A DNA stretch of 35,833 bases from a virus (IMGVR_UViG_2565956762_000002:1-35833), one strand, 5' to 3'. Shown: positions 32,259 through 35,833, counted from the stretch's first letter. The notes: generated by a model not told the origin, from the sequence alone. A program made the numbers and translations.

Positions 32259-32740
32259 TGATGGTGCTGGGATTATACGTGTTTATGCTGCGCACCGTGC
32301 CGTATCAGGAGCTGCAGTATCAGCGCAGCTGGCGACATGCGGCTAACAGCCGGGTTAACCGACGCCCGTCAACGCAGTTTCTGGGACCGGATAACGACAT
32401 GCTGACGCTTTCTGGCGTTCTTATGCCGGAAATAACAGGCGGCAGGCTGTCGTTGCTGGCACTGGAGCAGATGGCAGAACAGGGGAAAGCATGGCCCCTG
32501 ATTGAAGGCAGCGGCACGATTTACGGCATGTATGTGATTGAGGGACTGAATCAGACTAAAACGGAGTTTTTCCGCGACGGTATGCCGCGCAGGATTGAGT
32601 TCACCCTGTCGCTAAAACGCGTGGATGAATCCCTGTCCGATATGTTCGGTGATCTCAGTGCGCAACTGAATAATCTGCAGGGAACGGCAACATCTGCCTT
32701 AAGCGATATCAGTAAAACGGTGGGAGGGCTGCTGTCGTGA
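32255..32740 (+). CDS. U: Tail protein U
   Basis: 161 aa overlapping the T stop. Confidence 0.85.
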   Translation: MMMVLGLYVFMLRTVPYQELQYQRSWRHAANSRVNRRPSTQFLGPDNDMLTLSGVLMPEITGGRLSLLALEQMAEQGKAWPLIEGSGTIYGMYVIEGLNQTKTEFFRDGMPRRIEFTLSLKRVDESLSDMFGDLSAQLNNLQGTATSALSDISKTVGGLLS

Positions 32741-33837
32741 ATTTCAGCTCTGAACTGCTTAACAAAGGCAACAAAACTCCGGCATTCAGCATCAGTATTG
32801 AAGGCAGGGATATCACCACTGTGCTGGACAACCGCCTGATGGGGCTGACGCTGACGGATAACCGGGGATTTGAAGCGGACCAGCTTGATCTGGAGCTGGA
32901 CGACGCCGATGGAAAAATCGTGCTGCCGCGCCGTGGTGCGGTCATTACGCTGGCGCTGGGCTGGAAGGGGCAGCCGCTTTTCCCGAAAGGGGCATTCACG
33001 GTGGACGAGATTGAACACACTGGCGCACCGGACCGCCTGACTATCCGGGCGCGAAGTGCTGATTTTCGGGAAACCCTGAATACCCGCCGTGAAAAATCGT
33101 GGCATAACACCACCATCGGGGAAGTGGTGAAGGAAATAGCCGCGCGGCACAAGCTGAAGATGGCACTGGGTAAAGAGCTGTCGGATAAGCCCGTGGAGCA
33201 TATAGACCAGACTAATGAGAGTGACGGCAGTTTTCTGATGCGACTGGCGCGACAGTACGGTGCCATCGCGTCGGTGAAAAATGGCAATCTGTTATTCATC
33301 CGGCAGGGGCAGGGCAAAAGCGCCACTGGTAAACCACTGCCAGTGATCACTATCACACGCAAGGACGGCGACAGTCACCGCTTTACCCTGGCAGATCGCG
33401 GAGCCTACACGGGCGTAATTGCCAGCTGGTTGCATACCCGTGAACCTGCGAAGAAAGAAAGCACCACGGTGAAGCGTAAGCGCAGAACTAAGAAGCAGAA
33501 GAAAGAGCCTGAAGCGAAGCAGGGCGATTACCTGGTGGGTACGGATGAAAACGTGCTGGTACTTAATCGCACTTATGCCAACCGGAGCAACGCCGAACGA
33601 GCGGCGAAAATGCAGTGGGAACGCCTGCAACGCGGCGTTGCGTCATTCTCGCTACAACTGGCGGAAGGGCGGGCAGATCTCTACACGGAAATGCCAGTGA
33701 AAGTCAGTGGCTTTAAACAGCAGATAGATGATGCGGAATGGACTATTACCACCCTGACGCATACTGTCAGCCCGGATAACGGTTTTACGACCAGTCTGGA
33801 GCTTGAAGTGAAGATTGATGATTTCGAAATGGAATGA
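32737..33837 (+). CDS. D: Tail protein D (late control D)
   Basis: 366 aa overlapping the U stop. Confidence 0.9.
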   Translation: MNFSSELLNKGNKTPAFSISIEGRDITTVLDNRLMGLTLTDNRGFEADQLDLELDDADGKIVLPRRGAVITLALGWKGQPLFPKGAFTVDEIEHTGAPDRLTIRARSADFRETLNTRREKSWHNTTIGEVVKEIAARHKLKMALGKELSDKPVEHIDQTNESDGSFLMRLARQYGAIASVKNGNLLFIRQGQGKSATGKPLPVITITRKDGDSHRFTLADRGAYTGVIASWLHTREPAKKESTTVKRKRRTKKQKKEPEAKQGDYLVGTDENVLVLNRTYANRSNAERAAKMQWERLQRGVASFSLQLAEGRADLYTEMPVKVSGFKQQIDDAEWTITTLTHTVSPDNGFTTSLELEVKIDDFEME

Positions 33838-33927
33838 TTCTTCGCAATGGAGAACTTTTAAGTTTTCAAAATGGAATAATGCGGTATCATTATTGTGAAT
33901 TTAGCAAAAATGGGGAGAACTCGAAAA

Positions 33928-34146
33928 ATGATGATTTGCCCACTGTGTGGAAGTGCCGCCCATACTCGCAGCAGTTTTCAGGTATCTTCATTGACCAAAG
34001 AGCGTTACAACCAGTGCCAGAACATTAACTGCAGCCATACTTTTGTTACCCATGAAACTTTTGTTCGTTCGATTGCAACGCCAAAAGAGTCAAATCCGGT
34101 TCAGCCGCATCCTCATAAATTTAAACAGGTGGGTTTGCCGATTTAA
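33928..34146 (+). CDS. ogr: Ogr/Delta zinc-finger late-gene activator
   Basis: MMICPLCGSAAHTRSS ... ERYNQCQNINCSHTF is the Ogr C2C2 zinc finger; start placed at 33928 rather than the upstream in-frame ATGs. Confidence 0.85.
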   Translation: MMICPLCGSAAHTRSSFQVSSLTKERYNQCQNINCSHTFVTHETFVRSIATPKESNPVQPHPHKFKQVGLPI

Positions 34147-34209
34147 ATGGCGACATAACTACATGATTTAAAACTATACTTTTCTATAAGTTGAGGTTAA
34201 ATTAACAAT

Positions 34210-34388
34210 GCCTGACGTTAGCGGGGATTTATCCCCACTCCGTAGATATGTAGTTTGTCGCTTTGCGACTGCGGACCGATTACCTGATTGCCATGTAATC
34301 GGACGCCGACTTGTTAAGCTTTCTGGGCTAACTGGTTGTTATTTTTTATTTAGTTAGGGCCATGCGCTTGCGCTAAGAGACGTCAGGT
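34210..34388 (+). ncRNA. Candidate structured non-coding RNA upstream of the RT (retron msr/msd-like or DRT-type)
   Basis: 8-bp inverted repeat CCTGACGT (34211-34218) / ACGTCAGG (34380-34387) flanks about 160 nt with hairpins at 34223-34236, 34257-34269 and 34276-34302 (8-bp stem CCGATTAC/GTAATCGG). Confidence 0.25.
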
Positions 34389-34407
34389 ATCTATGGAGGA
34401 ACAAGTT

Positions 34408-34581
34408 ATGGATACAAACGAACTTGGCTTAGTTAAGGCGCGTGTTGAACTGATCACCGCTATGCTCAAATGCGCAACCGCGTTTGTTGGCTTAGTTGGT
34501 GCGGTTTACGCCGTTCTTAACATGGCCTTCAACTACAACAATTTAACTCATGACAATAGAAGTTCAAAGGTGGGAAGATAA
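34408..34581 (+). CDS. Small single-TM protein (57 aa), possible RT-associated effector
   Basis: ATG at 34408 preceded by GGAGG at 8 nt; hydrophobic segment ATAFVGLVGAVYAVLNMAF; the 3' end overlaps the RT start. Confidence 0.4.
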   Translation: MDTNELGLVKARVELITAMLKCATAFVGLVGAVYAVLNMAFNYNNLTHDNRSSKVGR

Positions 34582-35323
34582 ATTTGAGATTAAGCCCGGG
34601 GTTTGGGTTTATGTCCCAAGCGTTGAGGCACGTAAAGTCGGAGGGAAGATACTTCAGGCTGTCAGAAACAAGTGGATTCCGCCACTCTATTTTTACCATC
34701 TAAGAACTGGTGGGCATCTTAAAGCTGCCAGATTACACTTAAAAAGTGATTTTTTTGCCGTTGTTGATATTAAACATTTTTTTCAGTCAACGAGCCGTAG
34801 TCGTATCACCCGTGATCTAAAGAGCTACTTCACCTATTCTCAAGCGCGGGAAATCTCAACATTTTCAACTGTAAGAAACTTGTCCCATAGTCCACATAAG
34901 CATGTCCTCCCTTTTGGTTTTGTTCAATCTCCAATACTTGCAACCCTCTGCTTAGATAAAAGTTATTTTGGTAGCTTACTACGCCGATTGAACAAACATC
35001 ATGATCTCAAGCTAAGTGTGTTTATGGATGATGTGATCATCTCGTCAAACGATTTGGCCCAATTACAAGCGGCTTACGACGAAGCACTAGTGGCAATGCG
35101 TAAATCTGGTTATCAAGCCAACATGAGTAAAACTCAGGCACCATCGTCAAAGATTAGCGTGTTTAATTTAACTTTGAGTAAGGGAGTTATGAAAGTCACA
35201 TCTCAGAAAATGAGTGACTTCCTGATTGATTTCTATTCAAGCAATTATGAGCCGCACAGAATAGGGGTCAAAAACTACGTCGAAGCTGTTAATCCAGGGC
35301 AAGCGAAACTCTTTAAGTTGTAA
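34550..35323 (+). CDS. Compact reverse transcriptase (257 aa)
   Basis: RT motifs in order: RKVGGKIL, VVDIKHFFQS, PFGFVQSPILATLCL, FMDDVIISS (YxDD-like), then SKT and KVTS. Confidence 0.75.
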   Translation: MTIEVQRWEDKFEIKPGVWVYVPSVEARKVGGKILQAVRNKWIPPLYFYHLRTGGHLKAARLHLKSDFFAVVDIKHFFQSTSRSRITRDLKSYFTYSQAREISTFSTVRNLSHSPHKHVLPFGFVQSPILATLCLDKSYFGSLLRRLNKHHDLKLSVFMDDVIISSNDLAQLQAAYDEALVAMRKSGYQANMSKTQAPSSKISVFNLTLSKGVMKVTSQKMSDFLIDFYSSNYEPHRIGVKNYVEAVNPGQAKLFKL

Positions 35324-35397
35324 TTGCGATCGCATGTAGTAGCAACTGGGCTTGACTGAATGCCTGCCGCCATTTTGCCGCCACTACCAAAGAAAAA

Positions 35398-35421
35398 GGG
35401 GCTACGCTTTCACGTAGCCCC
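35398..35421. terminator. Hairpin terminator downstream of ssrA (also terminates the RT transcript)
   Basis: GGGGCTACG-CTTTCA-CGTAGCCCC flanked by T-runs on both strands. Confidence 0.6.
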
Positions 35422-35431
35422 TTGATTTATT

Positions 35432-35794
35432 TGGTGGAGCTGGCGGGAGTTGAACCCGCGTCCGAAATTCCTACATCCTCGGTACTACATGCTTAGTCAG
35501 TCTTTACATTCGCTTGCCAGCTGCGGACGGACACGCCACTAACAAACTAGCCTGATTAAGTTTTAACGCTTCAACCCCAGGCAGGGCTTCCACGCGATCT
35601 CTTTTGGGTTTGACCTCTCTTGATCCCCGTCCTAAGAGCGGAGGCTAGGGAGAGAGGGCTCTAAGCAGGTTATTAAGCTGCTAAAGCGTAGTTTTCGTCG
35701 TTTGCGACTATTTTTTGCGGCTTTTTACGAGGCCAACCGCCCCTCGGCATGCACCTTGGGTTTCGCAAATCCCGTCGAATCCAGAATCAGCCCC
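35432..35794 (-). ncRNA. ssrA: tmRNA (SsrA), 363 nt
   Basis: Minus strand reads GGGGCTGATTCTGGATTCGACGGG ... GGACGCGGGTTCAACTCCCGCCAGCTCCACCA, the enterobacterial ssrA 5' and 3' ends as recalled; length 363 nt. Confidence 0.95.
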
Positions 35795-35833
35795 AATGTG
35801 TAACGGCAAGTATACCAGATTTATGAGCGCCAT

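Follow-up and report, generated by a model that had tools for sequence, protein, structure and literature searches.

A P2-like prophage locus with a small protein gene between a retron-like RNA and a compact reverse transcriptase: probably a minimal Type VI retron relative that lacks an HTH gene

Layout of the locus

The DNA analysed here (hereafter the window) is a viral sequence of 35,833 nucleotides, IMGVR_UViG_2565956762_000002, and our subject is a gene near its 3' end that encodes a small protein (SP) of 57 amino acids (aa). The SP gene occupies 34408-34581 on the + strand, running from an ATG at 34408 to a TAA at 34579-34581, and it is preceded by the Shine-Dalgarno (SD) sequence GGAGG at 34395-34399, with an 8-nt spacer. 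Directly upstream lies a structured noncoding RNA (ncRNA). Downstream, in the +1 frame relative to SP and overlapping it by 32 nt, lies the gene of a compact retron-like reverse transcriptase (RT) of 257 aa (34550-35323, + strand; Pfam RVT_1, E = 4.4e-21), which has no SD of its own and whose frame is closed by a TAA at 34544-34546, one codon ahead of the RT ATG. Judged by the sequence comparisons reported below, the most fitting description of the locus is a minimal Type VI retron relative that has no helix-turn-helix (HTH) gene.

An earlier note on this DNA had pointed to a 57-aa open reading frame (ORF) with a good ribosome-binding site (RBS), one hydrophobic helix and a 32-nt overlap with the RT in a different frame, as well as to the stop codon just upstream of the RT ATG, and all of these features are present. 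It had left two explanations side by side, namely a small membrane effector and a frameshift that splits the RT. Another possible SP start, the ATG at 34393 (62 aa), was considered and rejected; it has no SD and reads ACG in one relative (L050), and 34408 was therefore taken as the start. RefSeq annotates both genes in identical copies from E. coli, as WP_000380485.1 (SP, 57 aa, hypothetical) and WP_000151541.1 (RT).

Conservation and character of SP

A scan of a collection of species-representative genomes returned 152 relatives, from which 80 loci were kept, and the hosts were gamma-, beta- and alpha-Proteobacteria together with a few other groups. The comparison covered 85 loci in all: 83 loci related to the window, plus the window itself and a single copy of it. 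An ORF of about 40-60 codons that ends just inside the RT gene was found in 80 of these 85 loci, with RTs that are 33-100% identical to the window RT, and both non-zero frame offsets between SP and RT occur. Among the other five, L045 and L066 encode SP and RT as an in-frame fusion, a third is truncated where its contig stops, and two gave no clear call. Within E. coli, a 76%-identical variant resides in a prophage at another attachment site with the same layout (59 aa + 256 aa), and in another strain the start of a 45%-identical RT is overlapped over 20 nt by a 57-aa ORF. The earlier note had named a two-ORF arrangement with a conserved small ORF in homologous loci as the sign of a real gene, and this arrangement is what the comparison returned.

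Across the family, SP consists of a basic N-terminus (MKK...), a hydrophobic or amphipathic helix of 25-30 residues, an invariant Asn-Tyr pair (N42-Y43 in the window) and a short variable tail. Asn and Tyr are the sole invariant residues after Met1, the Tyr codon of this pair being TAC in 42 cases and TAT in 32, and the length from Met to Asn-Tyr (median 38 aa) is conserved despite nucleotide divergence. For the part of SP outside the RT overlap, the ratio of non-synonymous to synonymous change (pN/pS) in 14 independent pairs was 0.36 (Fisher p = 6e-13), indicating purifying selection. Homologues of SP in 54 clusters have been independently gene-called as hypothetical proteins; none of these clusters carries a Pfam domain, and SP itself gave no matches in Pfam, PADLOC or NCBIfam. 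Because the ORF is open at the same place in nearly all loci and its pN/pS is low, the comparative data indicate that SP is a real, conserved and selected gene.

The best 19-residue Kyte-Doolittle (KD) segment of the window SP scores 1.94 and contains one charged residue. With 46 homologues as input, AlphaFold2 predicted a single helix over residues 3-52, and pLDDT, the predicted local distance difference test score, exceeded 90 for about residues 11-40. In the wider family, 55 of 74 SPs have a 19-residue KD segment of at least 1.6, and the median net charge is +3. The single-transmembrane protein proposed in the earlier note is plausible for the window allele; for the family as a whole, these predictions are better described by a cationic hydrophobic or amphipathic helix.

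A compact and outlying retron-like RT

A protein search found 72 RT homologues, nearly all of 250-260 aa, and an exhaustive profile search returned 282 RT clusters (50% identity, E <= 1e-30) of about 255 aa, almost all between 245 and 270 aa. Matches begin at residues 2-7 in these clusters, and a conserved N-terminal motif, W..KFE.KPG.WV.VP, is located 3-10 residues past each RT's own start codon. When the RT profile was compared with the PDB, the top matches were only retron RTs, with Ec86 at 4.6e-13 followed by Kva2, Eco8, Ec78, Ec83 and Ec67. Consistent results came from an AlphaFold2 model of P0036, a homologue in which SP and RT are fused, where the RT part has pLDDT above 90 and the 18 best Foldseek matches in the PDB are all retron RTs. 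In PADLOC, RT_VI was the top model for all 24 family members tested; the window RT scored 62.3 bits (E = 1.1e-17) within a family range of 62-85 bits (best E = 1.9e-24).

The matches of the RT to retron models are nevertheless weak, at most 62 bits in PADLOC and, for NCBIfam retron_St85_RT, 49 bits against a cutoff of 235. The NCBIfam retron and defence-associated RT (DRT) models, including Drt3a and Drt5, all remained far under their cutoffs, and the UG/Abi (DRT) models gave marginal scores only (UG33 33 bits, UG17 at best 3e-15), under all retron models. Compared with Ec86, the RT has about 45 fewer N-terminal and about 25 fewer C-terminal residues, profile position 12 aligning with Ec86 residue 60, and about 30-48 positions of the RT_VI model have no counterpart in the window RT. 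Since its best matches are retron RTs, yet the scores are weak and the VTG and NAxxH motifs are replaced, the RT is retron-like in sequence and fold but falls in a shorter, outlying lineage outside the catalogued Type VI members. The catalytic box of the window RT is FMDD (35021-35032), where the family consensus is YMDD; to judge from the sequence, this lineage-specific change at the first YxDD position probably leaves the enzyme active.

A structured RNA upstream of and extending into SP

The region 34208-34390 folds at -67.7 kcal/mol (z = -4.25 versus shuffled controls), and its elements all lie on the + strand. In the minimum-free-energy (MFE) fold, the 5' arm of the basal stem, a2 (AUGCCUGACGUU, 34208-34219), forms 12 bp with the 3' arm, a1 (GACGUCAGGUAU, 34379-34390). 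Right after a2 stands a UAGC motif (34219-34222), whose G34221 is a candidate priming (branching) guanosine through its 2'-OH, by analogy with canonical retrons; (A/U)UAG(G/C) occurs right behind a2 in essentially all 40 loci scored and forms a conserved block in alignment A7 (MAFFT, 32 loci). The MFE fold continues with a first msr-like hairpin (GGGGAUUUAUCCCC, 34223-34236), which has an equivalent after UAGG in other loci. It is followed by an anti-SD segment (CUCCGUAGAUAU, 34238-34249), identified by a stem search as a 12-bp complement to 34387-34398, and anti-SD/SD analogues with different sequence pairs are found in many loci. The next element, a conserved small hairpin (GUCGCUUUGCGAC, 34257-34269), reads GUCAC-N-GUGAU in relatives and shows compensatory changes (RNAalifold columns 75-78/84-87). 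Variable stem-loops at 34271-34340, the most length- and sequence-variable part of A7, are the presumed msd and would serve as the reverse-transcription template.

The 3' part of the RNA connects this structure to the SP gene. IR1 (UAGUUAGGGCCAU, 34351-34363), with a conserved U(A/G)GUU motif, is the 5' arm of a long-range helix to SP codons 39-43, and in a 391-nt MFE fold it pairs with the 3' arm, IR2 (AUGGCCUUCAACUA, 34522-34535), which spells the SP codons Met-Ala-Phe-Asn-Ty(r). A GCGC-loop-GCGC hairpin, then UAAG, follows at 34364-34377; the pattern is present in 42 of 74 loci and the helix is invariant in A7. The SD-containing segment (GUAUCUAUGGAGG, 34387-34399) overlaps a1 by 4 nt. Across loci the elements keep the same order, from a2 through (A/U)UAG(G/C), a hairpin, a pyrimidine-rich anti-SD, the GUCAC-N-GUGAU hairpin, the variable region and U(A/G)GUU-N6-8-CAU to the GCGC-loop-GCGC hairpin, UA(A/G)G, a1, the SD and the AUG.

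The pairings are supported by comparison across loci. For a2/a1, 96.9% of the cells in A7 are paired and both sides have changed in 6 of 7 pairs, versus only 29-39% paired in a sliding control with the partner shifted; double-change cells number 60, versus 17.7 +/- 4.6 in shuffles, and none of 500 shuffles was as high. We also compared duplexes formed in cis, with a locus's own partner segment, and in trans, with those of other loci. Pairing with the own upstream region was stronger both for a1 (-16.5 vs -12.5 kcal/mol, p = 1.7e-8) and for the SD segment (-19.0 vs -16.6 kcal/mol, p = 1.6e-9), and the IR2 codons paired better with their own U(A/G)GUU...CAU segment (-17.2 vs -12.5 kcal/mol, p = 8e-12; control segment p = 0.39). 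In the window the anti-SD/SD helix crosses the a2/a1 helix and 4 nt are common to both, so that the two would form either a pseudoknot or alternating conformers. The comparative evidence thus indicates that the upstream RNA is retron-like, that the SD of SP is sequestered and that the long-range helix reaches into the SP ORF.

A direct repeat, (G)CG(A/C/U)UA(A/G)G, lies inside both flanks of a2/a1 (34217-34223 and 34371-34377; A7 columns 18-25 and 222-229). It recalls the conserved 7-nt direct repeats of the Vpa2 hybrid RNA, which have been proposed to allow pairing of the riboregulator with msDNA, a multicopy single-stranded DNA (bioRxiv 10.1101/2025.10.22.683967). An Rfam scan of 33800-35833 at E <= 1 returned the ssrA transfer-messenger RNA (tmRNA) alone and no ncRNA match. 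A sigma-70 promoter scan upstream of a2 passed no + strand site; the single promoter-like site near the ncRNA is on the minus strand (34200-34173) and is directed away from SP.

Translation signals, neighbouring genes and SP-RT fusions

The SD at the SP start is strong family-wide, with a median of -7.3 kcal/mol and 68% of loci at or below -6, whereas the RT start has a median of -1.6 kcal/mol and only 7% at or below -6. The overlap between SP and the RT start is always present and ranges from 4 to 116 nt. As the RT start has no SD and lies inside SP, RT is probably translated by coupling to SP.

SP was the only conserved neighbour when ORFs within 2 kb of the RT were clustered, and it is therefore the only candidate effector; the other recurrent neighbours, integrases (7 loci) and P2 gpD/Ogr (5 loci), indicate a mobile-element context. 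Since SP directly overlaps the RT start, there is no room for an intervening HTH gene. A small XRE-type HTH ORF (~116 aa) was seen within about 1 kb of the RT in five alphaproteobacterial loci (L060, L063, L071, L076 and L082). Because it varies in side and strand, it was not counted in the system; it might be the repressor of a prophage or a regulator with only loose linkage.

Natural in-frame SP-RT fusions exist in K. pneumoniae (P0036), in Serratia (P0019) and at the two fused loci L045 and L066, and fused homologues of 302-309 aa are known. The P0036 locus is chromosomal, lies downstream of umuD/umuC-like genes (L087 2290-2680, CP128442.1) and retains a2, the anti-SD, IR1, the GCGC hairpin, a1, the SD and IR2. 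At another locus (L086), a second RVT_1 gene (494 aa) is situated just upstream of the fused SP-RT. The possibility that SP and RT are joined in the window by programmed +1 frameshifting was considered and rejected after inspection of the 32-nt overlap by eye, which contains an SD-like AGGUGG before AGA-UAA and no slippery P-site codon; the frame offset, moreover, differs between loci.

Comparison with known systems

Type VI retrons, named examples of which are Retron-Vpa2, Retron-Eco12 and Retron-Sen3 (clade 3 of Mestre et al. 2020), have the order ncRNA-SP-HTH-RT (bioRxiv 10.1101/2025.10.22.683967). Their SPs are helical proteins of 55-79 aa with a hydrophobic C-terminal core (bioRxiv 10.1101/2025.10.22.683967; 10.64898/2026.04.27.721009). 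The Type VI SP is toxic, and this toxicity needs its hydrophobic C-terminal helix; the RNA sequesters its RBS, and msDNA induced by phage relieves the repression of its translation (bioRxiv 10.1101/2025.10.22.683967). In Retron-Sen3, SP is constitutive and is neutralised by the HTH protein, and long-range IR1-IR2 pairing embraces the SP gene; an HTH gene is present in ~78% of catalogued Type VI systems, and Type VI SP regions have been reported to be under RNA structural selection (bioRxiv 10.64898/2026.04.27.721009).

The window family resembles these systems in that a structured msr-msd-like RNA comes first, a small protein gene next and a short RT last, in that the RBS of SP is sequestered in RNA and long-range pairing links the ncRNA to the SP region, and in that RT_VI is the top PADLOC model for every RT family member tested. 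Unlike Type VI, the window family lacks a Cro/C1 HTH gene both within the operon and close to it, its RT is about 255 aa rather than about 280 aa, and its SP overlaps the start of an RT gene without an SD. The last conserved codons of SP contain IR2, whereas the 3' arm in Type VI is located after the SP stop, and N-terminal SP-RT fusions exist in the window family.

A genuine Type VI locus, L085 on the Bacteroides uniformis plasmid pBUN2 (NZ_AP019726.1), was met in a tblastn search of the RT against plasmids, which otherwise returned mostly the same RT family, and it served as the positive control. Its RT scores more than 100 bits on many retron models besides RT_VI, carries the motifs NARLH and ITG, and is 28% identical to the window family over 155 core residues. 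At 1512-2615 of this locus, the RT is directly preceded by an ORF of 71-73 aa whose product has a strongly basic N-terminus followed by an amphipathic helix; the two are not separated by an HTH gene, and the sole nearby HTH gene is divergent, about 470 nt upstream of the small ORF. HTH-less SP-RT layouts therefore also occur within bona fide Type VI.

With canonical retrons such as Retron-Eco1 (Ec86), the window family shares an RT that is nearest to solved retron RTs in sequence and predicted fold, an ncRNA directly upstream on the same strand, an a2/a1 stem with a G-containing motif after a2, and a prophage location. It differs from them in having VFN for VTG and AxxxH for NAxxH, in the shortening of the RT at both ends, in an effector placed between ncRNA and RT with its translation signals within the RNA fold, and in an ncRNA without an Rfam match and NCBIfam retron scores far below the cutoffs. 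Like type I toxin-antitoxin toxins (Hok, TisB, Fst-like), SP has fewer than 60 aa and is a cationic, hydrophobic single helix, and its translation is apparently controlled by SD sequestration and long-range fold-back in its own mRNA. Unlike these toxins, SP has no antisense RNA that is evident (neither a search for antisense promoters nor transcript data entered the analysis), and the RNA that would regulate it is a template of the retron type, tied to an RT. Pfam, PADLOC and NCBIfam showed no sequence similarity of SP to known toxin families. We found no description of an HTH-less ncRNA-SP-RT family in the literature; the search did not cover the sequence of Retron-Eco12, which may be related.

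Proposed role of SP and alternative explanations

We consider it probable, at roughly 0.6, that SP is the small protein of a minimal HTH-less retron-like defence module, composed of the ncRNA, SP and the compact RT and carried as cargo by a P2-like prophage. By analogy with Type VI, SP would probably be the small toxic effector of a stripped-down relative; this reading draws on a retron-like ncRNA with a covarying a2/a1 stem, a small ORF conserved between ncRNA and RT, and the Type VI precedent. The earlier note's suggestion of a small membrane effector in the order ncRNA-effector-RT is borne out in its arrangement, while toxicity and membrane action would follow from the helix and the precedent. 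In the mechanism that we propose, the RNA fold would hold SP, and RT with it, at a low basal level, and RT would be primed from the G after a2 and copy the variable middle of the RNA into msDNA. Phage infection might then shift the msDNA level or the RNA fold, or free SP from an RT-msDNA complex, whereupon SP would accumulate or act and kill or arrest the cell, most likely at the membrane, so that the infection aborts. The logic would be that of Type VI retrons, with an SP toxin inside a 'hybrid RNA', but with no HTH partner and with a distinct, shorter RT.

Several observations speak against this proposal. The window RT reaches 62 bits on RT_VI, compared with 279 bits (E = 9.5e-84) for the genuine Type VI RT of L085. 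In the alignment with Ec86, the replaced canonical motifs are fixed in the family (FN of VFN invariant, an invariant Ala for the Asn of NAxxH). A comparison by hhalign of the SP profile with the small ORF of L085, a single example of Type VI, gave a probability of 0.4%, that is, no similarity. Clustering of neighbouring genes found no conserved HTH gene and no other antitoxin gene, and translational coupling, if it holds, would mean that SP is made whenever RT is made, which is awkward for a free toxin without an antitoxin. The Asn-Tyr codons double as the IR2 arm, and part of the apparent protein conservation may therefore act at the RNA level. Finally, in-frame fusions are viable, P0036 (302 aa) being extremely common in K. 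pneumoniae (7802 collection blocks), and a module associated with the RT explains them no less well than a free toxin does; AlphaFold2 gave the SP helix of this fusion pLDDT values of only 51-68 and the linker less than 50, with no confident docking on the RT. The main uncertainty is the role of SP, since the fusions, the coupling and the lack of an antitoxin also fit a module bound to the RT.

Such a module, in which SP is no toxin but a structural or targeting part of the RT (a detachable N-terminal subunit or a membrane anchor made at about 1:1 with it) and the effector lies elsewhere or is the cDNA, appears unlikely to us. Besides the fusions and the missing antitoxin gene, it would account for the SD-less RT starts inside SP and for the N-terminal residues that the RT is short of relative to Ec86 and the RT_VI model. 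However, SP is far more hydrophobic and cationic than the N-terminal domains of retron RTs and resembles small membrane toxins, the Type VI RT of L085 has a full N-terminal region in addition to its separate small ORF, and the predicted helix is not docked with confidence. Fusions are also rare, at about 2 of the best 150 cluster representatives, and with SP assigned to the RT the system would be left without any effector. We regard as less probable still that SP is mainly a translated leader, a peptide of little function whose translation brings ribosomes to the SD-less RT start and melts IR1/IR2. The contrast between the strong SD of SP and none at the RT start, the universal overlap, the IR2 arm within the ORF and the restriction of invariance to Asn and Tyr, whose codons are part of IR2, would all suit a leader; against it stand the low pN/pS outside the RT overlap, the maintenance of length, basic N-terminus and hydrophobic helix despite nucleotide divergence, and a helix predicted at high confidence, and a pure leader would need fewer than 40-60 codons.

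It is very improbable that the SP ORF is untranslated and stays open by chance or through conserved RNA structure. Its coding region does join a conserved pairing, and Type VI offers the precedent of RNA structural selection, but the strong SD is kept at a conserved distance, 80 of 85 loci keep the reading frame open despite extensive nucleotide divergence, synonymous changes are in excess, and gene callers call SP independently in many genomes. The frameshift considered in the earlier note, whether a sequencing or assembly error or a recent pseudogenising indel that split a single RT of ~300 aa, retains almost no probability and is, by the comparative data, refuted. The same sequence is shared by 29 complete, independent genomes of E. 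coli and by 13 records of phages, the two-ORF layout recurs with both offsets, almost all RTs in the 282 clusters have 245-270 aa by themselves, and the N-terminal motif begins right after the RT's own ATG. The lengths of SP and RT do sum to ~314 aa, close to the 302-309 aa of the natural fusions; the agreement with a typical ~300-aa RT that the earlier note remarked on is a coincidence, apart from the few lineages that do carry SP and RT in one frame.

Prophage setting and carrier genomes

At its 3' end the window carries the right arm of a P2-like prophage, in which gpD (32737-33837) and the Ogr/Delta zinc-finger gene ogr (33895-34146; Pfam E = 6.7e-22) are followed by the ncRNA-SP-RT locus. 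The host tmRNA gene ssrA (35432-35794, minus strand; Rfam) adjoins the prophage, and in E. coli genomes with identical copies smpB comes next after ssrA. The prophage is integrated at ssrA, and ncRNA-SP-RT occupies a cargo slot between ogr and attR; a search across the whole window found no att-site direct repeats. The interval from the RT stop to the 3' end of ssrA contains a strong, bidirectional terminator-like hairpin (35396-35423; 11-12 bp with 7 GC pairs), which could terminate both transcription units, the RT operon and ssrA.

Of 5426 complete E. coli genomes, 29 contain the DNA of this locus at >=99% identity, as do 13 GenBank phage records. The latter are unannotated 'Klebsiella phage Kp48xx' records (OK490395 and 12 others; 35.5-46.7 kb) that are 99.8-100% identical over the ncRNA-SP-RT region (34140-35340), so that Klebsiella as well as E. 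coli must be hosts among which the P2-like carrier phage circulates. Between 34140-34640 of the window and positions 1501-2010 of the S171-1 variant (L002), near-identity extends over the ncRNA and ~26 codons from the start of SP, while the remainder of SP and the RT are just ~67-76% identical, indicating a recombination breakpoint inside the SP gene. Seven of 34 element-bearing E. coli genomes carry an IS421 (IS4-family) insertion between the a2/UAGCG segment and the first ncRNA hairpin (L003 1440-1590; hits H60-H66; about 34223/34224 of the window). It cuts the ncRNA off from its 5' arm and any promoter, and those copies are therefore probably inactivated.

Significance

A toxic small protein inside a retron RNA was shown only recently for Type VI, and the two examples studied differ, one relying on msDNA-dependent translation and the other on an HTH antitoxin (bioRxiv 10.1101/2025.10.22.683967; 10.64898/2026.04.27.721009). 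The present family lacks the HTH gene and links SP to the RT through overlap, probable translational coupling and, in some lineages, fusion; it would thereby isolate the central problem, namely how a peptide toxin is controlled by an RT and its RNA. It is common, occurring in P2-like prophages of E. coli and Klebsiella, and its fused form is chromosomal in very many K. pneumoniae genomes. With no PADLOC match above marginal, no NCBIfam match above cutoff and no Rfam match, the family has probably been missed by model-based defence censuses.

Tentatively, and with more doubt than confidence, we suggest that these loci represent an unclassified, widespread two-gene retron lineage, to judge its extent by the 282 clusters at 50% identity and the 152 species-representative hits, in which a peptide of ~50 aa is the sole effector, its mRNA is part of the retron RNA and its translation is obligatorily coupled to the RT. 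If so, the SD would sit in a pseudoknot with the priming stem, the Asn-Tyr codons would serve both the peptide and the long-range helix, and the RT (with msDNA) might itself be the antitoxin or partner of the peptide in place of the HTH protein, an idea in keeping with the repeated fusion of the peptide to the N-terminus of the RT. No smaller self-contained immune module of the retron type would then be known, and the system would be a natural test bed for how reverse transcription leads to toxin release. Apart from this reading, a 255-aa RT with a template RNA of ~180 nt is of interest for genome-editing tools, as a very compact retron scaffold.

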